A stretch of DNA of 55,433 nucleotides from Nanobdellota archaeon (lineage in GTDB: Archaea; Nanobdellota; Nanobdellia; Pacearchaeales; GW2011-AR1), in contig JBBTAC010000002.1 in NCBI GenBank assembly GCA_038044405.1, forward strand, positions 1 to 55,433, in the 5' to 3' direction. Of the stretch, positions 3,001 to 47,224 are shown in pieces. The position numbers and the translations under genes were made by a program. The notes beneath the pieces are model-generated. The model saw only the letters and a program-made list of their open reading frames with translations, searched no databases and had not been told where the DNA came from. Positions within the stretch are counted from its first letter, which is position 1, and each line of letters starts with the position of its first letter.

Positions 3001-4988
3001 CGCAGGTAATTGCTCAAGTAAATTTGAATGGAACAATCATAGGAAATTTAAGCGCAGACCACATGACTCAACTTGAAGGAATTACCTTCGATACATTTGG
3101 CGATAAGCTTTATGGAATGGGGGAGGCAGATTTCTTCTCGACTTGGCACACTAGTAAGAATTATACTTCTTATCATAATTTCACAGGTATCGCCAACGGG
3201 ACTTATTTCTACAATGTTTCTGCCAGAGATGCTTTGAATAATTTTAATACAACTGAAAGCAGAACAATAATACTTGGAACATTGGCTACAGGAAATGCAT
3301 TTACTACTAATCTGAATCAATTGCTTTCTTTAAGAGATGTTGGGGCAAGATTTGGGAACTCATTTAGAATAAGTACTATTAATAACATTATTAATGGTGT
3401 CTTGAGCAGAACTAGAAATGTTGTAACATCTTTAACTCAAGCTTTGAATGTTGCCGCAAATCTTGTTAGAACATTATTAGGAATAAGAACATCAAATCAA
3501 AGCATATCTTTAAGCGCAATTTCCAGCAAAATAGCAAGTCTAAATAAAGCAATAGTCCAAAGAATTAATATTGACAATGTCCTAAGCCGCACATATTCGG
3601 GTATAAGAAGTCAAATACAATTATTATCTTTAAATACAGTAACTTCAAGGACAAAATCATTCCAAATAAATATCGTGCAATCATTGAATACATTTAGTTC
3701 AAGTGCTAAATTCAGCGCATTTAATAGAATTTTAACCCAGCAATTAACAATACTCTCAAGATTTTCAACTGTATTTTCAGGTTTGAATAAAATAGATTTA
3801 TTTCAAGGGTTTGTAATCAGCCCGATATCAGATAAAACCGGATTTTTCAAAAAGGGACTTGTACAATCTATCGTTATCAATCCAATAATAAGTAACAGCA
3901 AACTATTTTTTATCTCGTTAACACAAAAGATAAATATAATATCAAATTTCAATCGGGCATATCTATTTGTTAGAAATCCTCTTGCAACTCTGAACATAAA
4001 CAACATATTAGACAAAAAAGGATTTTTCTTTAGATTAATCGAAGCCATATTAAGAATAATAACCGGAAGAGTAGGTCCTGAACCAGAGCCGACTCCTACC
4101 TCAACTTCTTCTAGTTCAAGTTCAGGAAGTTCAGGAGGGGGAGGCGCAGCAGTCAGTACAACTACTAAAGGATTTGATATAGATAAAAACAAGATTAGTA
4201 TCCTATTAAAACAAGGAGAAACAAAATCAGATTACATAAAGATAACAAATAAAGAGAATAAAAAAATAAGAATTAGCATCTCCGCTTTAGAAATAGAAGA
4301 TTTAATAAAAATAAGCGAAAAAGATTTTGATCTTGAAGCAGGCGAATCCAAGGATATAAGAATTGATTTTATTGCCCACGAGGGTATTCCCCAAGAATTA
4401 TCCCTATCTCCAGGAGTATATATCGGAAAAATAATTGTCAGCGGTAATAATATAAATAAAGAAATTTTAATTGCAATAGAGGTCGAATCTAAGCTTGCTC
4501 TCTTTGATGTTAAAATTAGTGTACCATATAAATTTACAGAAATTAAACCAGGTGATGAGCTTCTCGCAGAAGTAAAAGCATTTAATCTGGGAAGAACAGG
4601 CTTGGTAGATGTAAAGGCAGAATATACAATTAAAGATTTCAATAATAATATTATTCTTGAAGAATCTGAAACACTAGCTATTGAAACTCAAACATCTTTC
4701 GTTAAAAGATTTTCTATATCTAGTAATGCGGAATACGGAGATTATGTTATTTATGTAAAAATTATCTATGCAGATAGCGTAGCAACATCCAGTGCAGCCT
4801 TCAAAATAACCCAGAAGCCATTTGTCAATTTAATAATAACCGCCTATGTCTTCTCTGCCATTGCAGTTATCTCAATAATAGCCCTTATTATGTTCTATCT
4901 AATAAGAAGAATGAGGAGATTAGAAAGAAGATTGGATAACCGAAATAGAAGAATAACTTTGCAAAAAATATCTCATACTTATCGATAA
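3..4988 (+). CDS. Giant cell-surface protein, 5'-truncated by the window edge: parallel beta-helix repeats, LamG/ConA-like domain, SdiA-regulated-like beta-propeller, degenerate repeat stalk, PT/S/G linker, two beta-sandwich-like domains, C-terminal TM anchor
   Basis: Frame 3 is open from nt 3, with no stop before the listed M411. The upstream part translates to NNxIT(T)xGxxxDGI-type repeats. LamG-like stretch: LIALYHFDN...WYHITTIWDSAGIMQLYVNG...GTIDELSIWNRSLSQAEI. Propeller-like blades: SGIAYNPVNNTLFVIHN, LEGVAYDANRDVFYIVKE, LEGITFDTFGDKLYG. Linker: GPEPEPTPTSTSSSSSSGSSGGGG. C-terminal hydrophobic helix LIITAYVFSAIAVISIIALIMFYLI followed by RRMRRLERR. Confidence 0.85.
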   Translation, partial: TIYNNTITTNGSDAISNTASKFNFIHNNNITTNGTSSDGILPGTNSTVLNNQITIKGASGDGITFNGNANNTLQGNVIIISNGVGNGITVVNGDFTHILHNNITTRGTGDGISFSSGSDYAVINGNIINTSGSGDGMDINGVGTNITNTTITTTGGGIGIILSSSTNGTLRGINIKTNASNAYGIYTGTSAVSSFEIFDSILNASASGLNDFFIDGTLNTTSKGSVWNLTNVTGSSANIDRNFSVGANGTLNVHWYLDAFANYTNSTNATNANISAFNKNNLMQFSVLTGADGRITRQILLEYSQNGTGGSNTTYYSNYTINATSIQKQNLTQSWNMTANRLLTFTFLPEIIAPIVTINSPANNTNIFDNRSVLLNWSIQEDSNNSEVFVWVSNGSNSGNITDFLVYHRTNKVNGTYTYNFSAPVVDSRYGDLIALYHFDNLSSRGENNTLVLDSAGGNNNVTCIGTTCPLFNETGLIAGAFEYDGINDFFNLSNPGNISNGSVMLWTKLRGIPSNTSDGYLVSKVKSGTNNGEFRLIINNTGGIEFQIECLSPTATYLVEGDSALSVEIWYHITTIWDSAGIMQLYVNGIKQTDTAAPNCGMQVFSEDVHIGRNNALGSGLYNGTIDELSIWNRSLSQAEITNLYNLSMGKYYWIVNASDNVGNTHSPGYYEFNITQTVIASQNTVNIFQSTFLNSVTSTTKKIITLITGQLRIVANLVRTLLGIRTQTGNVVLTASESDVGLFIKPNIYFDSRTLANGTQVNQSNVFIEVEFTDNDFSNLNYTLYNDTKIVANINSTYKYSFDLSKYSRVINNSDLSLSADSSGIAYNPVNNTLFVIHNTVGSESIQEIDLNGNLIRSITLTGFHDTEAIAYANTSGGTHRFIVAEEQRANLTAIFINDGTTTFAQSSGIIYNTSLGNLANLGLEGVAYDANRDVFYIVKEKTPKAVYQVNATGSPKAFTLFNADSLLSGQQSTNLSDLSEVYYDNNTDTLFISSHETQVIAQVNLNGTIIGNLSADHMTQLEGITFDTFGDKLYGMGEADFFSTWHTSKNYTSYHNFTGIANGTYFYNVSARDALNNFNTTESRTIILGTLATGNAFTTNLNQLLSLRDVGARFGNSFRISTINNIINGVLSRTRNVVTSLTQALNVAANLVRTLLGIRTSNQSISLSAISSKIASLNKAIVQRINIDNVLSRTYSGIRSQIQLLSLNTVTSRTKSFQINIVQSLNTFSSSAKFSAFNRILTQQLTILSRFSTVFSGLNKIDLFQGFVISPISDKTGFFKKGLVQSIVINPIISNSKLFFISLTQKINIISNFNRAYLFVRNPLATLNINNILDKKGFFFRLIEAILRIITGRVGPEPEPTPTSTSSSSSSGSSGGGGAAVSTTTKGFDIDKNKISILLKQGETKSDYIKITNKENKKIRISISALEIEDLIKISEKDFDLEAGESKDIRIDFIAHEGIPQELSLSPGVYIGKIIVSGNNINKEILIAIEVESKLALFDVKISVPYKFTEIKPGDELLAEVKAFNLGRTGLVDVKAEYTIKDFNNNIILEESETLAIETQTSFVKRFSISSNAEYGDYVIYVKIIYADSVATSSAAFKITQKPFVNLIITAYVFSAIAVISIIALIMFYLIRRMRRLERRLDNRNRRITLQKISHTYR

Positions 4989-5472: not shown

Positions 5473-5733
5473 TTATTTTTCTAAAACCTTTCTCTCCAAT
5501 AATCCAGATAAAGGTTTTCCATCTAATTCTACAACTGCCCTTTTTCCATCTATTAAATAAAACTTGTCCGAGATACCATTCTCATTAATATCGGCTTCTT
5601 GAATTATATATTTTGTTTGCCTTCTATCAAGATTAGTCTTAAGCATAAAACCAAGTCCGAAATAAGCACTTCCTAAAGCTAATCCTATTCCTAAAAATTG
5701 ACCAAATTTAGAGTCGTACCATTTGTCAGCCAT
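5473..5733 (-). CDS. Small membrane-anchored protein, unknown function
   Basis: 86-aa ORF with one hydrophobic helix (FGQFLGIGLALGSAYFGLGFML) followed by a charged soluble tail. No recognisable family. Confidence 0.5.
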   Translation of the reverse strand: MADKWYDSKFGQFLGIGLALGSAYFGLGFMLKTNLDRRQTKYIIQEADINENGISDKFYLIDGKRAVVELDGKPLSGLLERKVLEK

Positions 5734-5783: not shown

Positions 5784-5916
5784 ATCAAGAAGTCCTTGTA
5801 TTTTTGTCTGGACTCATCAAAGTCTTATAGACCTTGAATGCCATCAAGAATCCGACTTTAGAAGATTCTTGAGGTCTGGATGCTCAAGATTCAACTATCG
5901 AGGAATCTTGACATAA
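5784..5916 (+). repeat. Multi-hairpin intergenic repeat element, copy 1 (133 nt)
   Basis: Positions 5784-5891 match 28087-28194 at 107/108 nt (single G/A difference at 5811 vs 28114, manual alignment). Hairpins: CAAG-aagtc-CTTG (5786-5798), CTTGA/TCAAG (5833-5848), CAAGAATC/GATTCTTG (5845-5871), CAAGATTC/GAATCTTG (5885-5910). Shared 3' end ACATAA. Confidence 0.9.
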
Positions 5917-5967
5917 GTAAAAACTAACTTAGAAAGATAATTAAATTTGAATATATTATTATAATCG

Positions 5968-6294
5968 ATGTATAGAGTAATATATGCGTTTGGAAGACAA
6001 GGTATAGAAATAACTAATTCTTCAATAACTAATTTTTACGATAAAAGAGAAATAGAAATTCCATCCTCAATAAAAATTCCAGATAATTTAGAAGCAATAG
6101 AAATACCTGAATTTGAAAGAACACAACATTATAGGGCTTCACAATATTGGTATTTCACAGTAACATTTCCTGAAAGAGAAAGGTTTAGAACAGGCAGAAC
6201 TTTAACAGAAGAAGATATTAACAGAGAAATAGCAAAATCTTTAGAAAAAGAATTCAGATTTTTATATTGTCAATTTTATGTAAAAAATAAATAA
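5968..6294 (+). CDS. Hypothetical protein
   Basis: 108-aa ORF about 50 nt downstream of repeat copy 1. No recognisable motif. Confidence 0.5.
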   Translation: MYRVIYAFGRQGIEITNSSITNFYDKREIEIPSSIKIPDNLEAIEIPEFERTQHYRASQYWYFTVTFPERERFRTGRTLTEEDINREIAKSLEKEFRFLYCQFYVKNK

Positions 6295-14518: not shown

Positions 14519-14959
14519 ATGCTCTGCCCATATTGTTCACACGAAGAGAGCAAGGTAATCGATAAAAGAGACGCTAATGAGATTACAAGACGAAGGAGGG
14601 AGTGCTTAAAATGCAGTAATCGCTTTAACACAAGAGAAGCGGTTGAAAAAGCAGAGCTTCATGTCATAAAAAAAGATGGCAGAAGAGAAGAATTCAATAG
14701 AGCGAAAATAGAAAGAGGCATATTGAGGGCTTGTGAAAAGAGACCTGTAAATAACGAGACAATTGAAAAGATGATTAATAAAATAGAGGAAAAGATTAGA
14801 AAAAAAGGGAGTGAGGTTAAAGCTAGTTTTATTGGTGAATTAATTTCAAAGGAATTAAAGAAAACAGACAAAGTTGCATATATTAGATTTGCATCTGTTT
14901 ACAAAGACTTTGCCGATCTTGATGATTTTAAAAAAGAGATAAAGGGGTTGATTAAATAG
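14519..14959 (+). CDS. nrdR: NrdR transcriptional repressor (zinc ribbon + ATP-cone)
   Basis: MLCPYCSHEESKVIDKR...RRRRECLKCSNRFNTRE zinc ribbon, followed by an ATP-cone-like region. The gene ends 3 nt before nrdJ. Confidence 0.92.
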   Translation: MLCPYCSHEESKVIDKRDANEITRRRRECLKCSNRFNTREAVEKAELHVIKKDGRREEFNRAKIERGILRACEKRPVNNETIEKMINKIEEKIRKKGSEVKASFIGELISKELKKTDKVAYIRFASVYKDFADLDDFKKEIKGLIK

Positions 14960-14962
14960 CAA

Positions 14963-17900
14963 ATGGCAGAAGAGAATGTTATGAACGGCAATGGATATGA
15001 AAACGGCAATAGCAATGGATATGAAGATAAAAGGATATTTGTACAAAGATTAGATTCTATAAAACGTTCAATGCAGATTGAAAGATATTTTACTCAAGAA
15101 AACAAAAGTCCATTTATATACGGTATTAATGGAAAGCCTTTAAACTGGATTTCAGAAGATGTTAACGTTACAGATGATAGGGGAAAGTTAATATTTACCC
15201 AGCCAAGTGTTAGAAGACCTGATTTTTGGAGTCCTTTAGCGATTAAAGTAGTTGCGAGCAAATATTTTTGGGGCGACCAAGCAAAAAATGAAAGGGAGAA
15301 TACAGTAGAAAAATTAATAGGCAGGGTTTCTAGGTTTATAGGAAGACAATCATTAAAACAAGGATACTTTAACGAAAAAGAAAGCAGTATACTTCAAGAT
15401 GAGATATCGGCTATATGTTTAAATCAATTATGTGTTTTTAATTCTCCTGTTTGGTTCAATGCTGGAATTCAAGAATATCATCAAGAAGCAGGAGGCGTTT
15501 CAGCTTACGTCTGGGACGAGACAACTAAGGGCATAATAAAATCAGATAAAGCAATGGACAGACCACAATGTTCAGCATGTTTTATTTTAAGCGCAGAAGA
15601 TAATATGGATTCTATAATGGCTGTGCAGACTGCAGAGGCTAATTTATTTAAGGCAGGCTCGGGAACAGGAACAAATCGTTCTAATTTAAGAAGTTCAAGA
15701 GAAAAATTAACAGGAGGAGGAAGAGCTTCAGGACCTGTAAGTTTTATGAGAGGTTACGATGCATATGCCTCTGTTATCAAATCAGGAGGCAAGACTAGAA
15801 GGGCAGCAAAAATGGAAATATTAAATATAGACCACCCTGATGTAATGGATTTTATTAATGCAAAACAAACTGAAGAAAAAAAGGCATGGGCTTTAATTGA
15901 GCAGGGTTATGGTGGTGGAATGAATGGAGATGCATATGGCAGCGTTTGTTTCCAGAATTGCAATATGTCTGTAAGAGTTTCAGACGAATTCATGAAAGCT
16001 ATAAAAAATGATGGAGAATGGCAGACAAAATTTGTAAAATCAAATGGAGTATGCGAAACTTTTAAGGCAAGAGATATATTGGACAAAATAGCAGAAGGAA
16101 CTTGGATTTGCGGCGATCCAGGAATACAATGCGATACAATCATAAACAAATACCATACTTGCAAAAATTCAGGAAAGATAAATGCATCTAATCCATGCGT
16201 AACTGGAGACACAAGAATTTTAATAGAAGGAGGTAAATGGGTGAGAATTGACTCAATTTTAGATAAAGAATCAAATATTTTAACTAATACAGGGATTATT
16301 CAAGAATCAAAAATAAATGGTTCATTTAAAACAGGTAGAAAACCAGTATACAAATTAACAACGAAAAGTGGATACGAAATGAAATTAACTTCTGACCATA
16401 AAGTATTTACAATAAATAGGGGATTTGTTCCAGCATGCGAACTTACTAAAGATGATTATATATTGCTTCCAGCTTATAATGTGTCTGAGGTTGTAGAACC
16501 AGAAGATAAGAATTTTTATCAGATGTTAGGAGTTTATCTGGGAGATGGGCATGGCGGGATGAATAGCGAAAGTATACAGTTAACTATGAACAAAGAAGAA
16601 GAAATACCAATATTAGAAAGATTTGCTGAATATGTTGCAACTAACTATGAAAGAATAACTCACAAAAACTCTCCAGCAACTGTAAGAATTACACCTACTT
16701 CTTGCAAGTATAGCATTACTAATACATTTGTTATTAATAAATTCAAAGAATTTGTTGATTTATCTTTATTAGGGCATGAAAAATATATATCTAATAGAAT
16801 ATTTAGTTTAGGTTTAGGAGAGCAGAAATATATCTTACAAGGGTTATTTAGTTCTGATGGAACTGTTGCAAATTATGGGGAAAAATCCCAATATGTCTCT
16901 TTAGATTCTACAAGTTTACAATTATTGAAAGATGTTCAGCTTATTTTATTAGGATTTGGAATTAAGAGCAAACTGTATAAAAATAGAAGAGCTGGAAAAG
17001 ATAAAGCTTTCTTGCCAGATGGAAGGGGCGGATTAAAAGAATATAACGTAAAAGAAATGCATTCTTTAAGAATTTCTAGATCAGGAAGAATAAAATTTGA
17101 AAGATTAATAGGATTCATGCCGGAATCTAAGAAGGGCGAGAGACTTAGAAAGATGAATGAACAAATTGGCGTTTATAACGATAAACCAATTGATGCCGTT
17201 GAGTCTCTTAATTATATTGGAGAAGAAGAGGTCTACGACTTAACTGAGCCATTGACACACAGTTTTGTAGCAAATGGTATTACAGTTCATAATTGCTCCG
17301 AGTATATGTTCCTTGATGACACGGCTTGTAATTTAGCATCAATTAATCTAATGAAATTTAGAACAGAAAATGGCGGATTTGATGCAGAGGGTTACAAGAA
17401 AGTTGTTAGATATTTTATAACTGCTATGGATATTTTTGTTGATGGAGCAAGTTATCCAACTGAAAAAATTGCAGAAAGGTCGCACATTTTCAGAACATTG
17501 GGATTAGGCTATGCAAATCTTGGAGCATTGTTAATGTCTTTAGGCTTACCCTATAATTCCGACTCAGGAAGAGCTGTTGCAGCAGCAATAACTGCAATAA
17601 TGTGCGGAGAAGCATATAAAGCCAGCGCAGAACTAGCAAGATTAGTTGGACCATTTCCTGGATTTAAAGATAATAGAGAAAGCATGTTGAATGTTATTAG
17701 AATGCATAGAGAGCATGTTAAAGAAATAGACGTCGAAAAAATACCTGTCGATTTAAGAGATTTAGTAAATATAGCCTGGGATTGCTGGAGTGAAGCTCTA
17801 GAACTAGGCGAGAAATATGGATTTAGAAACGCACAAACAACTGTTCTAGCGCCAACCGGAACAATTGCATTTATGATGGATTGCGACACAACAGGTATAG

Positions 17901-18949
17901 AGCCAGACATTGCCTTAGTAAAATATAAAGTCCTTAGTGGAGGAGGCATGTTAAAGATTGTTAATGGCTCAGTCTCCTTAGCATTGAAGAAATTAGGATA
18001 TAATGAATTTGAAATTAAGAACATTATAGAATACATTGATAAAAATGATACTATTGAAGGAGCTCCTTATCTAAGAGATGAACATCTCGATGTATTTGAT
18101 TGTGCGTTCAAACCTGCAAATGGGAAGAGGGCAATCAATTATAAGGCGCATATTGATATGATGGCTGTTTCTCAGCCATTTATTTCAGGAGCAATTAGCA
18201 AGACAGTTAATATGCCTGAAGATTCTACAGTAGAAGATATTGCCAAGGCCTATATTTATGCTTGGGAAAGTAAATTAAAAGCAGTTGCTATTTATAGAGA
18301 GAACAGCAAGAGAAGTCAGCCATTAAATACAAGAAAAACAGAAGGCGAAGTTGTTAAAAAAGTTGAGAAGATAATTGTCGCAAAGAGAATTCCTCTTCCT
18401 CAAACAAGAAAATCTATTACACATAAATTCGATATAGGAGGACATAGCGGATATTTAACAGTTGGACTATATGACGATGGAAAACCAGGAGAAGTATTTG
18501 TTACAATGGCAAAGCAAGGCTCAACAATAAGAGGCTTAATGGACGCTTGGGCTCGCTCTATATCTTTAAACTTGCAATATAGTGCGACTATAAACGAGCT
18601 ATTTGGAAAATTCAGGCATCAAAAGTTTGAACCTGCTGGATTTGTTAAAAATGAAGGTGGAGGGTCAATTGATGAAAAAGTAAAGCCTATCAGAACAGCA
18701 TCATCAATAGTAGACTATGTTGCTCAATTCATGTTGAATAATTTTGGAATTAGTGCCGGAAAAGTTCAAGTAGACATTGAACCAGATTTAGAAATTAAAG
18801 ATGCAATTGATGAACAAGCACAACTTAATGAGTTTTCTAATGAGGGATTAATCTGCTCATTCTGCGGCGGCACTGCAAAAAGAATTGGAAATTGTGCAAT
18901 TTATTGCACGAGCTGTAATCAAACCCAAAGAAGCGGATGTGGAGAATAA
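14963..18949 (+). CDS. nrdJ: Class II (B12-dependent) ribonucleotide reductase NrdJ, interrupted by an in-frame intein
   Basis: N-terminal FWSPLAIKVVASKYFWGD. The active-site loop SNP|C...|CSEYMFLDDTACNLASINL is split by the intein. C-terminal Cys cluster CSFCGG...CAIYCTSCNQ. Confidence 0.95.
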   Translation: MAEENVMNGNGYENGNSNGYEDKRIFVQRLDSIKRSMQIERYFTQENKSPFIYGINGKPLNWISEDVNVTDDRGKLIFTQPSVRRPDFWSPLAIKVVASKYFWGDQAKNERENTVEKLIGRVSRFIGRQSLKQGYFNEKESSILQDEISAICLNQLCVFNSPVWFNAGIQEYHQEAGGVSAYVWDETTKGIIKSDKAMDRPQCSACFILSAEDNMDSIMAVQTAEANLFKAGSGTGTNRSNLRSSREKLTGGGRASGPVSFMRGYDAYASVIKSGGKTRRAAKMEILNIDHPDVMDFINAKQTEEKKAWALIEQGYGGGMNGDAYGSVCFQNCNMSVRVSDEFMKAIKNDGEWQTKFVKSNGVCETFKARDILDKIAEGTWICGDPGIQCDTIINKYHTCKNSGKINASNPCVTGDTRILIEGGKWVRIDSILDKESNILTNTGIIQESKINGSFKTGRKPVYKLTTKSGYEMKLTSDHKVFTINRGFVPACELTKDDYILLPAYNVSEVVEPEDKNFYQMLGVYLGDGHGGMNSESIQLTMNKEEEIPILERFAEYVATNYERITHKNSPATVRITPTSCKYSITNTFVINKFKEFVDLSLLGHEKYISNRIFSLGLGEQKYILQGLFSSDGTVANYGEKSQYVSLDSTSLQLLKDVQLILLGFGIKSKLYKNRRAGKDKAFLPDGRGGLKEYNVKEMHSLRISRSGRIKFERLIGFMPESKKGERLRKMNEQIGVYNDKPIDAVESLNYIGEEEVYDLTEPLTHSFVANGITVHNCSEYMFLDDTACNLASINLMKFRTENGGFDAEGYKKVVRYFITAMDIFVDGASYPTEKIAERSHIFRTLGLGYANLGALLMSLGLPYNSDSGRAVAAAITAIMCGEAYKASAELARLVGPFPGFKDNRESMLNVIRMHREHVKEIDVEKIPVDLRDLVNIAWDCWSEALELGEKYGFRNAQTTVLAPTGTIAFMMDCDTTGIEPDIALVKYKVLSGGGMLKIVNGSVSLALKKLGYNEFEIKNIIEYIDKNDTIEGAPYLRDEHLDVFDCAFKPANGKRAINYKAHIDMMAVSQPFISGAISKTVNMPEDSTVEDIAKAYIYAWESKLKAVAIYRENSKRSQPLNTRKTEGEVVKKVEKIIVAKRIPLPQTRKSITHKFDIGGHSGYLTVGLYDDGKPGEVFVTMAKQGSTIRGLMDAWARSISLNLQYSATINELFGKFRHQKFEPAGFVKNEGGGSIDEKVKPIRTASSIVDYVAQFMLNNFGISAGKVQVDIEPDLEIKDAIDEQAQLNEFSNEGLICSFCGGTAKRIGNCAIYCTSCNQTQRSGCGE
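16196..17293 (+). mobile_element. Intein (366 aa) with LAGLIDADG homing-endonuclease domain, inserted at the NPC active-site cysteine of NrdJ
   Basis: Begins CVTGDTRIL (block A, Cys1). Has TSDHKVF (block B TxxH). Two LAGLIDADG motifs: LGVYLGDGHG and LQGLFSSDGTV. Ends FVANGITVHN, followed by the +1 Cys of CSEYMF. Both boundaries are in frame with the host ORF. Confidence 0.9.
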
Positions 18950-19314: not shown

Positions 19315-19361
19315 TTTAACTCTAATAAGGTTTAAATAACAATTTTTTCTTCTCAGACCAT

Positions 19362-19435
19362 GGTTCCGTAGCTCAGTCTGGTAGAGCACTGGGCTTTTAA
19401 CCCAGGTGTCGCGGGTTCAAATCCCGTCGGGACCA
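19362..19435 (+). tRNA. tRNA-Lys (anticodon UUU), no intron, CCA not encoded
   Basis: Manual cloverleaf. Acceptor GGTTCCG/CGGGACC (one G-U pair). D stem GCTC/GAGC. Anticodon stem CTGGG/CCCAG with loop CTTTTAA. T arm GCGGG-TTCAAAT-CCCGT. Discriminator A. 74 nt. Local GC spike. Confidence 0.95.
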
Positions 19436-19582
19436 TTTTAGGATTTGAACAGGTTCAAATCACTTCAACATGTAAGTGTCGAAGTTAACAATATTCTCAA
19501 TAAAATCCCTTCGGAAAAACATTCCAAACACTAAAAAAATTGCAATAAAAAAGAAATTACAATAATTTTTTCATTCTTCATT

Positions 19583-27500: not shown

Positions 27501-28050
27501 AATAATTTCTGGTGTAAAAAATATATCCCAAATATTTGTTTCACAAAGAGAGAAAGATTTTGTAATAGTTACAGCAGGTTCTAATCTAAAAGATATCTTG
27601 GATATAAAAGGTATAGATGTCAATAATGTAACTTCAAATGATATATTTGACGTTATGAATGTTTTTGGTATAGAAGCTGCTCGCCAGACAATAATTAATG
27701 AAATAAAAAAAGTTATAGAAAGTCAGGGTTTAGACATCAATGAGAGGCACATTAAATTGATTGCAGATGCAATGGCAGTATTAGGAACAATAAAAGGAGT
27801 TACACGTATGGGAATAATATCTGATAAAGCAAGCATATTAGCAAGAGCGACTTTTGAAACACCTGATAAACAATTTATTGGCGCAACATTAAAAGGTCTA
27901 AAAGAAGAATTGAACTCAGTAATAGAAAACATTTTATTGAATCAGCCAATTCCTGTTGGCAGCGGCCTGCCAGGTTTGTTAGTTAAGGTAACAGGCCCTC
28001 TTGTAAGAAAAGGCGACAAAGATGCCAAGAAGCGCGCTGAGGAAGAATAG
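24598..28050 (+). CDS. rpoA: DNA-directed RNA polymerase subunit A with A' and A'' portions fused in one ORF
   Basis: N-terminal Zn motifs [16 protein letters not shown] and CPSCG...CAHCN. Catalytic [12 protein letters not shown]. A'-end-like FAYGDDSKD runs without a stop into the A''-type trigger-loop region [26 protein letters not shown]. Confidence 0.95.
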   Translation: [1150 protein letters not shown]

Positions 28051-28086
28051 ATTTAAAAAAAGATTCTTAAAAAACCTAAATTTAAA

Positions 28087-28208
28087 ATCAAGAAGTCCTT
28101 GTATTTTTGTCTGAACTCATCAAAGTCTTATAGACCTTGAATGCCATCAAGAATCCGACTTTAGAAGATTCTTGAGGTCTGGATGCTCAAGATTGCATCT
28201 TGACATAA
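28087..28208 (+). repeat. Multi-hairpin intergenic repeat element, copy 2 (122 nt)
   Basis: 28087-28194 is 107/108 identical to 5784-5891. The terminal hairpin is shortened to CAAGAT-tgc-ATCTTG (28188-28202). Same ACATAA end. Lies between the rpoA stop (28050) and the nusA start. Confidence 0.9.
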
Positions 28209-28253
28209 AACAAAAAGATAGATTTATATACCTTATTGCAAAATAATAATAAG

Positions 28254-28670
28254 ATGACGACGATAAATATGCAGACGTTGGTTTATATTAATCTATTAGA
28301 TAAGGCCTCTCACGTTAAAACAAAACAATGTTTTGTCTATAATAATACTATTTTCTTTGCTGTTCCAAAGCAATTAGTTTCTCAAGCTATTGGCCCAAAT
28401 GCCTCTTATGTAAAAAAGATCAGAGATAATTTAGGAAAAAAAGTTAAGATTATAAGCGCTCCAGAAGGCCCAGAGGAAATGCAAAAATTCATTGAAGATA
28501 TTGTCTCCCCAACTAAATTCAAGTCTTTAGAAATAAGGGATAATACAGTAATTATCACAGCCGGAAGCAATCAAAACAAAGCATCCTTAATAGGGCGAAA
28601 TAGGAGAAGATTTTCTGAAATGCATAAAGTTATTCACGACATTTTTAATATGGATTTGAGGATTGTTTGA
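28254..28670 (+). CDS. nusA: Archaeal NusA-like transcription termination/antitermination factor (two KH domains)
   Basis: About 138 aa. KH-like segments AIGPNASYVKKIRDNLGKKVKII and LIGRNRRRFSEMHKV. Canonical position between rpoA and rps12. I chose the ATG at 28254 rather than the TTG at 28236 used by the ORF track. Confidence 0.8.
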   Translation: MTTINMQTLVYINLLDKASHVKTKQCFVYNNTIFFAVPKQLVSQAIGPNASYVKKIRDNLGKKVKIISAPEGPEEMQKFIEDIVSPTKFKSLEIRDNTVIITAGSNQNKASLIGRNRRRFSEMHKVIHDIFNMDLRIV

Positions 28671-28723
28671 GACATATAAAACATCAGGGCAAGTTTTAAA
28701 AACCCTCTTTCTCTTCTGAAAAT

Positions 28724-29149
28724 ATGGGATTAATGAATGCACGCAAAATTGGAAAGAATAGGAAAAATAGTAGATGGGCGGATCATAAATATAAAGTAAG
28801 AACGCAAAATCTAAGAGTAAAGTTCGATCCTCTCGGAGGCAGATCATTTCAAGCAAGAGGCATTGTTATAAGTAAATTTCAAAAAGAAGCAAAACAGCCA
28901 AACTCTGCAATGAGAAAATGCTGCAAAGTACAACTAATAAAAAATAACCTTCAAGTAGGAGCATTTATCCCTGGAAATCTTGCTCAAAAGTTCGTTGATG
29001 AGCACGATGAAGTTTTAATAGAAAGAATTGGCGGAAAAATGGGCCGTTCTAAAGGAGATATCCCAGGAATAAGATTCCAAGTTATAAAAGTAAATGATCA
29101 GCCATTAAGAAGATTGTGGAAAGGTCAGATAGAGAAGGGAAGAAGATAA
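28724..29149 (+). CDS. rps12: 30S ribosomal protein uS12
   Basis: KQPNSAMRKCCKVQLIKN, IPGIRFQVIKVN. 141 aa. Confidence 0.95.
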   Translation: MGLMNARKIGKNRKNSRWADHKYKVRTQNLRVKFDPLGGRSFQARGIVISKFQKEAKQPNSAMRKCCKVQLIKNNLQVGAFIPGNLAQKFVDEHDEVLIERIGGKMGRSKGDIPGIRFQVIKVNDQPLRRLWKGQIEKGRR

Positions 29150-29151
29150 TT

Positions 29152-29769
29152 ATGGAAAAAACACAGCTCCCAGAATTGAAATTTAAATTATTTGACATAT
29201 ACGATGCTTCAGAAGCTGTAATAAAAGATCAAGCTTTAAAGCCATATATTAATTTAGATAATAAATTATTGTTAAAATCTTATGGCAGAAATCTAGAGAA
29301 ATTCGCAAAAATAAGAGTTAATATTTTAGAGCGTATGGCGAATAGATTGGCAGTTCCAGGCCATGTAGGAAAGAAGCATAAAATAATTACATCTTGGAGT
29401 TCAGGAAAATATAATAAAAATATGTCTACAATATTTAAAGCATTAAATATTATAGAAAGAGTAACAAAGAAAAATCCAGTTCAAGTTTTAATAGATGCAA
29501 TGGAGAATGGCTCTCCAAGAGATGAAATAACAGTTATAGAGCACGCAGGAGCAAGATATCCACAGGCAGTTGACAGTTCTCCAATGAGAAGAATTGATTT
29601 AGCAATTCGCTGGATTGTACAAGGTTCATACCAAAGATGTTTTGGTAAGAAGAAGAAAATGGCAGAATCTTTAGCAGATGAAATAATTAAAGCCTCTCAA
29701 AATAATATGGAAAGTTATTCAGTCAGTAAAAGAAATGAAGCTGAAAAACAAGCTGATTCTGCGAGATAA
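29152..29769 (+). CDS. rps7: 30S ribosomal protein uS7
   Basis: Archaeal S7 pattern (ENGSPRDEITVIEHAGARYPQAVDSSPMRRIDLAIRWI). I chose the ATG at 29152, just after the S12 stop, over the upstream in-frame ATG at 29116. Confidence 0.93.
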   Translation: MEKTQLPELKFKLFDIYDASEAVIKDQALKPYINLDNKLLLKSYGRNLEKFAKIRVNILERMANRLAVPGHVGKKHKIITSWSSGKYNKNMSTIFKALNIIERVTKKNPVQVLIDAMENGSPRDEITVIEHAGARYPQAVDSSPMRRIDLAIRWIVQGSYQRCFGKKKKMAESLADEIIKASQNNMESYSVSKRNEAEKQADSAR

Positions 29770-29806
29770 TAAAAAAGCTTATATAATCTTGCACATTAGA
29801 TATAAT

Positions 29807-29980
29807 ATGGAAACAGAAAAGATAAATGAAAAAGAAATAATAACAAGACTAGCAAGGCTTCAAACAGATATGAATTATGTAAGGGAGCATATTGAAGATA
29901 TTACTTTGACAGAAGATGATTTGGAATCAATTAAAGAAGCTGAAAAAGATTTAAGAGAAGGAAGAGTAAGGAGATTGTAA
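29807..29980 (+). CDS. Putative antitoxin of a type II toxin-antitoxin pair
   Basis: 57-aa helical acidic ORF (TEDDLESIKEAEKDLREGRVRRL) ending 6 nt before the RelE/ParE-like ORF. A TATA-like TTATATAA at 29779-29786 fits a near-leaderless start at 29807. The longer ORF-track start at 29735 would overlap rps7. Confidence 0.6.
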   Translation: METEKINEKEIITRLARLQTDMNYVREHIEDITLTEDDLESIKEAEKDLREGRVRRL

Positions 29981-29986
29981 TATCTC

Positions 29987-30247
29987 ATGTATCTTGTAGC
30001 TCTTTCTCAACGTGCTCAAAAATTCTTAGATAAACTTGATTTCCATATAAAAGAAAGAATTGAAAACACACTAAAAAGACTAGAAAGTAACCCTGTTCCA
30101 AGCGATGTAGTTTTTATTGGTAGGGAAGAAGGAGACAAAGTTTTTCGCTATAGGATTGGAGATTATAGGGCATTGTATAAATTGAAAGATTCAGAAAAAA
30201 TTATTTTAATTACGAAGATTGATAAAAGACCTAGAGTTTACGATTAA
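29987..30247 (+). CDS. RelE/ParE-family toxin (mRNA interferase type)
   Basis: 86 aa. FRYRIGDYRALYKLKDSEKIILITKIDKRPRVY matches the RIGDYR...I..I..R family signature. Confidence 0.8.
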   Translation: MYLVALSQRAQKFLDKLDFHIKERIENTLKRLESNPVPSDVVFIGREEGDKVFRYRIGDYRALYKLKDSEKIILITKIDKRPRVYD

Positions 30248-31153
30248 TCATTTCTCCTTCGTCGCATGTCCCCCAAACTCTTCTCTTAAAAGAGAAATCA
30301 ATCGTGTAGAAAAAGATTGCTTTTTCTCAGACAATTTCCTTTTTCGCAACGCAAGTTTCAAACTATCAAATTCAACACCTGACTTCTTAGCAATTGAATG
30401 AGCCAATTTCCCGCTTTCCCCTCCCCTAATAATGCCGTCAGTATTTTTAAGTTCAGGATTTTTATTCAATATTTTCTCTATTAATTCGGTTAAATTAGAC
30501 TTAATTATGGAGCCATTATTCCAAATTTTAGCAATTTCTTTTAAGTTAAATTTATACTCGCTCTTGCTCAAAACTTCAAAACCTTCACCATAAGCTTCCA
30601 ATATAGCATACTCAATTCCATTATGTATTAATTTTACAAAATGCCCAGCCCCACTATTACCAACATAACCATAGCCATTCTTTTCAGCTAAATCTCTAAA
30701 CAAAAATTCTATTTTTTTAAATATATTTTTATCTCCCCCAATAGTTAAAGAAGCTCCATTTTTTGCTCCTTCTAAACCTCCACTTACACCAAGGTCAATA
30801 AAATTAATTCCCTCTTCTTTTAATACTTCATAACGCCTGGAAGAATCCTCATAAAAAGAATTCCCCCCGTCAATGATTATATCGCCTTCAGAAAGAAATG
30901 GAAAAAGACCTGCAATTATATCATCAACTGGCTTTCCTGCAGTCACCATTAGAATTATAATTTTCCTGTTTCCTAAACTATCTGCAAATTCTTCAAATGA
31001 ATATTTTCCAATCGCTCCTTTTCTAGCCATTTCCCTAGTAGATTCTGGAGAGCGATTATATACAGTTACATGATACTTTTTAGAAATAAGGTTTAAGGCC
31101 ATATTCTTGCCCATCTTGCCCAATCCAACAATACCAACTCTTTTTTTTCCCAT
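30248..31153 (-). CDS. gnd: 6-phosphogluconate dehydrogenase, decarboxylating, short (~300 aa, YqeC/GndA-like) form
   Basis: Rossmann motif VGIVGLGKMGKNMALNL. GVSGGLEGAKNGASL. GAGHFVKLIHNGIEYA. Confidence 0.85.
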   Translation of the reverse strand: MGKKRVGIVGLGKMGKNMALNLISKKYHVTVYNRSPESTREMARKGAIGKYSFEEFADSLGNRKIIILMVTAGKPVDDIIAGLFPFLSEGDIIIDGGNSFYEDSSRRYEVLKEEGINFIDLGVSGGLEGAKNGASLTIGGDKNIFKKIEFLFRDLAEKNGYGYVGNSGAGHFVKLIHNGIEYAILEAYGEGFEVLSKSEYKFNLKEIAKIWNNGSIIKSNLTELIEKILNKNPELKNTDGIIRGGESGKLAHSIAKKSGVEFDSLKLALRKRKLSEKKQSFSTRLISLLREEFGGHATKEK

Positions 31154-33177: not shown

Positions 33178-33972
33178 ATGCTTTTAAATTTAAACTTTTT
33201 GAGGTTATTAATGAACAGAAGCCCTCTTATGCTTGGAGTAGAAAGAAAGATTGGCGAGAATATCGAATCTTTCTTAACAGAAGCCTATGTAAATGAATGG
33301 AAGTCTAGTCTTTATATTGGTAGGAAATTAAAAGTTCATCCTGCAACTATAAGGCGTTGGCTCATGAAATCAGGTGTTAACTTAAGAAATACCAAAGATT
33401 ATTTATCTAGAAGAATTAAAAAACCTCTTAACAACACCTTAAAGTATTATTATCATGTAAGAAAACCTGTTTCAGAAATTGCAAGCGAAAGAAAAGTTTG
33501 TGCAAAAACAGTTTATCGTTGGATGGAAAGTGCAGATATAGAAAGGAGAAAGGGATCCAATGCGTATCTAGATAACGGATTTACTAGACCTTCAAATAAA
33601 GAATTAGAAGTGTTGCTAAGTCAAAAAAATAAAAAAGAAATTTCCTCTATTTACGATATTAATCCGCATACTTTAAGAAGATGGATACAACAAGCAGGAT
33701 TGCATCAATTTAAAAAAAGCAGATATGATTCTAAAAATTTAAGAAGAAATATGGTTAAAGATCTGCTTGAAAGATTAGAAAAAGATTTTAGTCAATTAAG
33801 GTATGAAGATTTCAGTACTAAGAAAGAAGATGGAAATTCTTATAGAGGCCTGCTTAATTGGTACATTGCGCACCATCGTTGCAGATTTTCTGGTGTAAAG
33901 AGGCAAATGAAAGAAGATTATTCAGAAAATGACAAAATGTCTAATTCCATATTACCTTCTGAATTTTCTTAG
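33178..33972 (+). CDS. Protein with three tandem helix-turn-helix-like repeats, unknown function
   Basis: Three spaced repeats of a recognition-helix-like motif: HPATIRRWLMKSG, AKTVYRWMESADI, PHTLRRWIQQAGL. The start is uncertain (33178, 33211 or 33229). The 3' end overlaps the convergent aldolase gene by 32 nt. Confidence 0.6.
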   Translation: MLLNLNFLRLLMNRSPLMLGVERKIGENIESFLTEAYVNEWKSSLYIGRKLKVHPATIRRWLMKSGVNLRNTKDYLSRRIKKPLNNTLKYYYHVRKPVSEIASERKVCAKTVYRWMESADIERRKGSNAYLDNGFTRPSNKELEVLLSQKNKKEISSIYDINPHTLRRWIQQAGLHQFKKSRYDSKNLRRNMVKDLLERLEKDFSQLRYEDFSTKKEDGNSYRGLLNWYIAHHRCRFSGVKRQMKEDYSENDKMSNSILPSEFS

Positions 33973-46468: not shown

Positions 46469-46552
46469 CATCAAGATTTGCTGTTCACAAATAGCAAATC
46501 TTGTGTGCTCAAGAACCAAGCAATTAAGAATAGTCTAAAGGTTCTTGACATC
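46469..46552 (+). repeat. Double-hairpin element related to the 3' half of the 5784/28087 repeat
   Basis: CAT-CAAGATTTGCT-(loop)-AGCAAATCTTG (46472-46503), then GCT-CAAGAACC-(loop)-GGTTCTTG-ACAT (46510-46550). The conserved flanks catCAAGA...TCTTG and gctCAAGA...TCTTGacat are the same as in the repeat, with different but complementary inner stems. The second arm overlaps the last codons of pgl. Confidence 0.6.
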
Positions 46553-47224
46553 AGTAAAAACATAGGAATCTTCTATTGAATTAATAAGTTTTGCTGGACA
46601 ATCTGCAATTATCAATTTATTATTCATAAAGTTTTCATAAGCTTCTCTTTTCTCTTCACCAAAGAAAAGAAGCAGTCCACATTTAGATTTCTGCAATAAT
46701 CTTCTAGAAGCCGAAATTCTATCAGAAGGCAGTTTAGGAGATTCTTTCACATTTACAAAAAATTCAGAAGGGTCTTTTACAGACGAATTTGGAAATAAAG
46801 AGCCAACATGCCCATCTTCTCCAGAACTAAGCAATATTATATCATAACAGTCTGAAATTAATTTCAATTCGTTTTTGTATGCTTCTAGTCCTTTATTCAT
46901 AGGCAGATTAAAATAAATATAGGGATGCATGTTATTGCTCAATAAAAGTTTCTGTTTTGTCAAATATTCTAGAAATATATCATAAGCTTGTTTGAAATTT
47001 TTTCCCGGGTCATTACCAATTGTATCATCAATCATAAAGATATGCACTTTATCCCATTTTATATTTTCATTTTTTAAAATATTAAGAACACCAATTATGG
47101 ATCTTCCGCCAGGAATTGCAAGAACAACTCTTTCCTGTATTTTCAGGAGAGAATTTATCTTTTTAGCAATAAGTTGCGCGGCTTTTATTTCAAGTTCTTT
47201 CCTTTTTCCATTAATTATCTTCAT
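46535..47224 (-). CDS. pgl: 6-phosphogluconolactonase
   Basis: [22 protein letters not shown]. Overlaps msrB by 4 nt. Confidence 0.85.

Follow-up and report, generated by a model that had tools for sequence, protein, structure and literature searches.

The closest described counterparts of the repeat reported here are the bacterial REP, BIME and REPIN sequences, which are mobilised by RAYT, an IS200-like transposase of the Y1 HUH type. Other known systems that bear comparison are the PATEs derived from IS200/IS605 elements, the BOX elements of Streptococcus pneumoniae, the Correia and ERIC repeats and the canonical MITEs. For archaea, a search of the literature gave only bulk censuses of MITEs and REPs, none of which describes the present hairpin family. 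A high MITE density, 105 MITEs per Mb, has been found in one Woesearchaeota genome (PMC11602168).

Here we report a previously undescribed family of modular hairpin repeats. It is of an already known kind, the prokaryotic interspersed palindromic repeats; notable in it are a four-way-junction fold, nested modular growth and a DPANN host. The element is most likely a non-coding mobile repeat rather than a dedicated RNA gene. The genomes of DPANN archaea are tiny, streamlined and known almost only from metagenomes, and a structured repeat probably still multiplies there.

Copies in the window and their surroundings

The window, that is the whole stretch of 55,433 nucleotides that was analysed, encodes RpoB, a fused RpoA (1150 aa), NusA, S12, S7, EF-2 and enzymes of the pentose-phosphate and glycolytic pathways, at a GC content of about 32%. 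The closest relatives of its RpoA are found in Pacearchaeota/Woesearchaeota ("Nanoarchaeota") MAGs, which identifies the host as a DPANN archaeon. The window holds two full elements and a partial one:

5784..5914, plus strand: copy 1, full element of 131 nt (covariance model 109.9 bits, E 2.6e-23)
28087..28206, plus strand: copy 2, full element of 120 nt in the rpoA-nusA spacer (covariance model 106.3 bits)
28114, plus strand: sole substitution between the copies, G to A, by which a C-G pair of helix P1b becomes C.A
46470..46551, plus strand: third, partial relative of the 3'-domain type, ATCAAGAUUUGC..GCAAAUCUUG-UGUG-CUCAAGAACC..GGUUCUUGACAU, between convergent genes

Copies 1 and 2 had been picked out by a previous reading of the letters (hereafter the sequence-only reading) as a near-identical pair on the same strand with unrelated flanks. 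This description was confirmed: the first 108 aligned nucleotides (5784-5891 and 28087-28194) differ by one substitution only, G5811/A28114, and the flanks show no alignment beyond AT-richness. In copy 1 the last hairpin is longer by 11 bases, located in its loop and upper stem; the hairpin is shortened in copy 2 as had been reported. CTTGACATAA is the 3' end common to both window copies, and after CTTGACAT both continue with AA. The ACATAA on which both copies were said to end is thus present, but it did not hold as a boundary, since comparison across the family places the conserved 3' end ...GACAT two bases earlier, at 5914 and 28206.

Exact 26-mer and 50-mer probes match only the two copies in the window (shuffle expectation 0.00), and no further full copy was found there by nhmmer or the covariance model, with filters off in both. 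The partial relative consists of a 3'-domain hairpin and a terminal hairpin. All three plus-strand CTTGACAT sites of the window are ends of these elements, each with TGCTCAAG before it. The 3' arm of the partial relative overlaps the minus-strand, 6-phosphogluconolactonase-like gene at 46535-47224, whose last five codons and stop (46535-46551) lie within the arm; the repeat may have reshaped the C-terminus of this protein.

Copy 1 lies between divergent small ORFs (5473-5733 on the minus strand, 5968-6294 on the plus strand), and copy 2 between rpoA (stop at 28050) and nusA (ATG at 28254), within the rpoB-rpoA-nusA transcription unit. The distances to the next ATG (5914 to 5968 and 28206 to 28254) had been read correctly, as had a TATA-like box between copy 2 and its ATG, which is TTTATATA at 28224-28231. 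No reading frame is common to the copies and their indels are not multiples of three, in line with the earlier statement that no ORF is conserved.

The locus of copy 1, including the element, was found in an independent Hainich groundwater assembly (L163). Furthermore, four independent Logan assemblies, made from other runs, break off within the copy 1 element, all of them at one position. Together these observations show that the element is a real repeat of the population and not an assembly artefact.

Several other features of the window were recorded. The cumulative GC skew peaks at about 28000-30300, where gene orientation flips from mostly plus to mostly minus; the element copies at 5.8, 28.1 and 46.5 kb are all on the plus strand despite this flip. 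At 14519-18949 (plus strand) a gene for an NrdR-like repressor, with Zn ribbon and ATP-cone, stands directly upstream of a class II ribonucleotide reductase that contains an intein with a LAGLIDADG domain, followed by a thioredoxin gene and tRNA-Lys(UUU) at 19361-19436. Directly after the gene for ribosomal protein S7 come an ORF of 81 aa, without a match in Pfam, and a toxin gene of the ParE family; together (29735-30247, plus strand) they look like a toxin-antitoxin pair ending the rpo/S12/S7 operon. Past the right end of the window, locus L168 (7560-10000) carries a free-standing LAGLIDADG gene and then about 1.5 kb with neither a called gene nor an Rfam match; in another sample (L170) the neighbour here is not the same. 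An L30e gene is absent between rpoA and nusA (28051-28253, and downstream of rpoA in L006-L085).

Fold, family and modular build

The predicted fold is a four-way junction, formed by helices P1a, P1b, P2 and P3, followed by one or more 3' hairpins, and it is supported by covariation. Its parts are as follows:

5784..5790, plus strand: 5' strand of P1a in copy 1, AUCAAGA, pairing with UCUGGAU at 5875-5881; closes the junction, with one conserved A.G mismatch
5791..5814, plus strand: P1b hairpin of copy 1, AGUCC (5791-5795)/GGACU (5810-5814) with a 14-nt loop; both-side changes in four of five pairs
5817..5837, plus strand: P2 hairpin of copy 1, UCAAAGUCU-UAU-AGACCUUGA, with an A.C mismatch (A5821/C5833)
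5842..5874, plus strand: P3 hairpin of copy 1, CAUCAAGAAUC...GAUUCUUGAGG, with the junction AUGC (5838-5841) just before it
5884..5914, plus strand: terminal hairpin of copy 1, UCAAGAUUC (5884-5892)/GAAUCUUGA (5903-5911), then CAU, the family's conserved 3' end
28087-28093/28178-28184, 28094-28098/28113-28117, 28120-28128/28132-28140 and 28145-28155/28167-28177, plus strand: the same helices in copy 2
28187-28193/28197-28203, plus strand: terminal hairpin of copy 2, shortened

The sequence-only reading had drawn a row of four hairpins. Three of these survive as P2, P3 and the terminal hairpin, whereas the first, CAAG/CTTG, finds no support in covariation (80% paired, a level also reached by 63 of 500 shuffles) and is replaced by two long-range helices. 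Across the family, P1a pairs a 5' AUCAA(A/G)A with U(U/C)UGGAU located 3' of P3. Its variable pair covaries (AU in nine copies, GC in four, GU in one), and in copies of the window type an A-to-G change on the 5' side is matched by U-to-C. P1b reads CACGAUGUGCC/GGCACUCGUG in another subfamily, P2 has the form UCAAG...CUUGA, and P3 the form CAUCAAGAAU...AUUCUUGAGG with a conserved A.G mismatch. The junction is followed on its 3' side by GC, optional hairpins and the terminal hairpin, the stem of which also covaries between copies. Almost every hairpin stands on a UCAAG...CUUGA foot, and TCAAG/CTTGA occurs six to seven times per element. The junction sequences CA, AUGC, the A.G mismatch and GGAUGC are highly conserved, a conservation that was partly imposed by the search patterns.

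In 14 copies checked by hand, 97% of the cells are paired and both-side changes occur at 11 pairs, a result reached by none of 500 shuffles, and slid controls collapse. Double changes were seen at 28 of 31 pairs among 65 distinct copies, in an alignment fitted to the model. The structured-element option of the sequence-only reading is thereby borne out. The consensus fold is not the fold of minimum energy (-30.2 vs -35.1 kcal/mol for copy 1, -19.2 vs -29.9 kcal/mol for copy 2).

The A.C mismatch in P2 is shared by both window copies, whereas the nearest relatives (L139, L140, L152, L153 and L123) have A-U at this place. A derived mismatch common to both points to a recent origin of one copy from the other, and judged from their sequences the two appear to be a recent intragenomic duplication that is starting to decay. 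As the only difference between them breaks a P1b pair, the two changes together speak for decay or drift rather than for a tightly constrained RNA at these two loci.

The search patterns were derived from comparison of the window element with a relative (L012) whose rpoA-nusA spacer contains the middle portion of the element, with compensatory changes in both hairpins. Pattern scans, together with a covariance model built from 14 copies, revealed about 60 related copies, in at least eight Pacearchaeota/Woesearchaeota-type MAGs and in groundwater and other metagenomes. About 21 of these are from eight GTDB representative MAGs, with at most five per MAG and on different contigs. A further 41 metagenome loci, from groundwater and other sources, contained a real copy in 39 cases; the remaining two (L128 and L137) are chance matches. 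A contig end lies within about 200 nt of roughly one third of the 39 metagenome copies. In 280 kb of loci the covariance model gave 78 matches at E <= 0.01, including about 58 full elements (E < 1e-8), and in other genomes it picked up fainter relatives, more diverged in sequence, close to the rpo operon. Hairpin elements of greater divergence also adjoin or lie near family members at L140 887-1001 and L105 6535-6699 (both in minus orientation); they either begin with the same ATCA..AA or combine CAG...CTG feet with a ...CGACAT end. The patterns used probably captured only part of the family.

Whole hairpin modules have been gained and lost precisely, and elements range in size from about 60 to 350 nt. 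The P2-P3 pair may be present, absent, alone or nested in inverse orientation; the last was seen in seven loci, as a P2-P3-like module inside the 5' part of a full element. In short forms that lack P2-P3, GGAC is joined directly to UUUUGGAUG. In many copies the loop of P1b or of the terminal hairpin houses an extra GC-rich hairpin, which has a loop of the UUAAAA type and UUUG after it. Tandem copies have their terminal AT in common (...CTTGACATCAAAAAG...).

The presence and absence of a single module can be read within one spacer. In L012, P2-P3 stands alone, and its flanks of 22 + 22 nt occur 100 nt apart in a filled and an empty state: GCAAGA|CCTCAAGG...CTCGAGG|AACCG when filled and GCAAGA|AACCG when empty, without duplication. 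The region (4253-4418) has the layout [A X B] Y [A B], in which X stands for the two-hairpin module and A and B for perfect direct repeats of 22 nt, so that the filled and empty pair lies inside one spacer; the second B contains the nusA start codon. An archaeal bulge-helix-bulge intron was considered for this pair and rejected by hand inspection, the intron-side CUCA and exon-side ACCG not being complementary.

Known identities were also sought for the element itself. No family of Rfam 15 matches it, in line with the sequence-only reading, which recognised no known RNA family, and the window and five other loci give only tRNA. Of the hits below threshold the best was a minus-strand RAGATH-1 hammerhead (E 0.49; 19.8 bits, where the cut-off is 56.3), rejected because homologues do not keep the UGAUGAG/GAAA catalytic core. 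The topology is that of a cloverleaf, but the arms measure 9 and 11-12 bp, and ARAGORN and the Rfam tRNA model find only the tRNA-Lys at 19361-19436. For 5S rRNA, H/ACA and C/D box RNAs and the RNase P CR-I region, assessed by eye, there is no model match and the multi-copy modular variation does not fit. A template or variable repeat of a diversity-generating retroelement (DGR) was rejected because the element lies outside coding sequence and the sole difference between the window copies, G to A, is not adenine-specific. Likewise, a virus or plasmid origin was rejected, the element having 0 matches in IMG/VR and in phage and plasmid collections.

Insertion, mobility and competing explanations

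Full copies start with ATCAA(A/G)AA and finish with (C/T)TTGACAT, the CTTGACAT end, in unrelated, AT-rich flanks. As read from the sequences, the inverted match between the two ends is only 5-7 nt long, imperfect and interrupted by a 2-nt indel. Target-site duplication was looked for in 32 copies at every boundary offset with k = 2-6, and matches equalled the shuffled expectation, with the exception of an invariant AT at both ends that is indistinguishable from element sequence. This agrees with the earlier remark that no such duplication is obvious.

Syntenic relatives carry their copies in neighbouring but different spacers and orientations (L093 vs L126, L097 vs L118), for which reason orthologous retention was rejected. 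About 60 relatives have either nothing or something different in their rpoA-nusA spacer, which ranges in length from -16 (an overlap) to 2331 nt and contains unrelated small ORFs in some of them (L006, L008); a related module occurs only in L012 and, weakly, in L043. This variability shows that the element is not a conserved part of the operon. A look-up of exact flanking proteins gave only filled sites or broken contigs, and no strain-level empty site was recovered. Pairs of elements on the same contig are co-oriented in about 8-10 cases and opposed in two, which is only a hint of the alignment with the replication strand that a single-stranded DNA mechanism might produce.

In about 1 Mb of loci examined, neither the window nor the surroundings of any copy contained a transposase, recombinase or HUH gene, and no parent autonomous element with the same ends was found in these loci or the window. 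Comparing 335 flanking ORFs all against all gave no recurrent neighbour protein family, only syntenic housekeeping genes. The one transposase-like feature seen is encoded at 33178-33972 of the window (plus strand), a 264-aa protein with three tandem transposase-type HTH motifs (HPATIRRWL, AKTVYRWM and PHTLRRWI). It lacks a catalytic domain, and IS3/IS630 models match it in their HTH parts alone, with scores that fall well short of the cut-offs. The other DPANN loci (roughly 1 Mb) contain no homologue of this protein, and nothing speaks for or against it as a partner of the element.

The reading we prefer, with a probability of about 0.55, is that of a REP/BIME- or MITE-like non-autonomous mobile repeat recognised as a folded single-stranded nucleic acid. 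The elements would multiply within and between genomes of Pacearchaeota/Woesearchaeota-type DPANN archaea, and would be copied and inserted as a folded single strand, most likely of DNA. Mobilisation would be the task of a trans-acting, structure-specific enzyme encoded elsewhere in the genome, for which an HUH/Y1-type transposase is the closest model by analogy with REP/REPIN and IS200/IS605 derivatives. Recognition or cleavage may take place at the UCAAG/CUUGA foot. The minimal target would be AT, and elements would insert beside ...AT within AT-rich spacers and leave no variable target duplication. Stems would be kept by compensatory change in those lineages that stay active. A copy inside a transcription unit, such as copy 2 between rpoA and nusA, would be transcribed, and a side effect on mRNA processing or stability is conceivable.

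It is possible, if rather improbable, that the elements belong to an unrecognised hairpin-insertion system of DPANN archaea, either an archaeal counterpart of REPIN-RAYT or mechanistically new, or else that a new class of cloverleaf-shaped functional RNA has turned mobile. The enzyme of such an insertion system would recognise the four-way-junction strand, as DNA or RNA, and paste whole modules precisely and with no target duplication, even into the loops of existing copies.

A serious but less probable rival of the preferred reading is that the elements form a structured non-coding RNA family, with a cloverleaf-like junction and 3' hairpins, in which the RNA fold is selected and dispersal is secondary. 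Such an RNA might act in trans as a small RNA, serve as sponge or scaffold for a binder of the UCAAG/CUUGA foot, or be a processing or stability signal in cis. The strong covariation in four helices is consistent with this, as are junction nucleotides that stay conserved while loops and stems vary, and the place of copy 2 inside the rpoB-rpoA-nusA transcription unit. The folding strand also bears on it. When whole elements are folded, 22 of 32 copies do so better as the plus strand, which also contains more G.U pairs (125 vs 71); the copies behind these counts are not independent of each other. In the junction core, however, there are 27 G.U-type and 19 A.C-type mismatches, a near parity that is expected if pairing matters in DNA or if the mismatches are neutral decay. 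The folding entity is, on these data, a single strand, weakly favoured to be the plus strand, and this is equally compatible with a plus-strand RNA and with a plus-strand DNA intermediate.

Other evidence speaks against an RNA family. Neither a conserved promoter-like box at a fixed upstream distance nor a downstream oligo-T tract was found. The genes downstream of the copies are unrelated housekeeping genes (e.g. those of NusA, TIM, a GTPase, an aminopeptidase, endonuclease IV, NAC and RpoH), which also rules out a riboswitch or regulon leader. In a first sample (n = 21) copies shared their strand with the downstream gene, at 25-70 nt, in 16 cases vs 5, but this bias disappeared in the larger sample (20 vs 13, p = 0.3, not significant). 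A position upstream of a plus-strand gene, which the sequence-only reading had noted for both window copies, can thus not be upheld as a rule of the family. Furthermore, the P2-P3 module also occurs inverted inside elements, the window copies contain pair-breaking changes, and the positions of copies differ between relatives.

We consider it distinctly unlikely that the repeat is an RNA-mediated, SINE-like element whose folded transcript is copied back into DNA by a reverse transcriptase. Reverse transcriptases, of the DGR type and others, occur commonly in these lineages, and this route would suit the single-strand-specific structure, which mildly prefers the plus strand, as well as the sharp ends on both the 5' and the 3' side and the absence of a variable target duplication. 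An A-rich tail and an internal promoter are lacking, however, no reverse transcriptase was seen near the copies or in the window, and both the inverse nested modules and the precise gain of internal hairpins are easier to explain at the level of DNA.

Still less credible is an array of double-stranded DNA sites, in which TCAAG/CTTGA half-sites upstream of promoters would be bound by a regulator or chromatin protein. The recurrence of this motif within each element and the location of many copies just upstream of core promoters would fit such an array. Nevertheless, the half-sites stand anywhere from about 9 to 45 nt apart, the inner positions of the stems covary although a double-stranded site does not demand this, and copies are found not only in divergent and tandem spacers but also between convergent genes and inside operons. 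A segmental duplication or assembly artefact private to this contig, suggested by the fact that the window has only two full copies that are nearly identical, has a negligible probability in view of the unrelated flanks, the same locus in independent assemblies and the dozens of homologues in other genomes.

The repeat is also of practical interest. It breaks assemblies and lands in core operons such as rpoA-nusA, and it matters for strain typing and for the finishing of genomes. As a natural marker it records recent genome dynamics, and it offers a lead to the enzyme behind its mobilisation or to a protein partner that recognises the UCAAG/CUUGA foot in RNA. The four-way junction is defined well enough for a curated model, with which such regions would no longer be annotated as empty spacers.

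Comparison with known repeat systems

The present elements resemble canonical MITEs in being small, non-coding, multi-copy and intergenic, at non-orthologous sites and with an AT-rich target. The MITE-like spread proposed from the letters alone stands to this extent, whereas the terminal inverted repeats (TIRs) and target-site duplications (TSDs) of a canonical MITE are weak or absent here. With BOX, Correia and ERIC the family shares optional or repeated internal modules, a stable predicted RNA structure, a location near gene starts and inside operons, and a mobilisation machinery that is unknown or borrowed. There is no sequence relation to these repeats and the nested inverse modules set the present family apart; in addition, Correia and ERIC have clear TIRs and TA duplications, of which it has neither.

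The similarity to IS200/IS605-derived PATEs lies in the hairpin-based build with subterminal hairpins, the lack of a TSD and of a clear TIR, the single-strand-specific folding, and a constant short sequence, here AT, at the left flank and right end. Only this dinucleotide is constant here, whereas IS200/IS605 targets are 4-5 nt long. Unlike in PATEs, the hairpin on the left is not a copy of that on the right, and no TnpA/TnpB gene with matching ends was found.

Like REP, BIME and REPIN, the elements are short extragenic palindromes with a conserved foot motif. Also in common are mosaic arrays with alternating orientation, inverse modules adjoining main copies in seven loci, and the combination of compensatory stems, intergenic location and broken assemblies with the absence of clear TIRs and of target duplications. 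No RAYT gene was seen in the window and about 1 Mb of loci, and the copy number looks like tens rather than hundreds. In contrast to the bacterial repeats, the foot is UCAAG/CUUGA, and neither GTAG nor CGTC occurs as a tag in any copy; the hairpins are here organised in a four-way junction that takes up nested insertions, in an AT-rich DPANN host.
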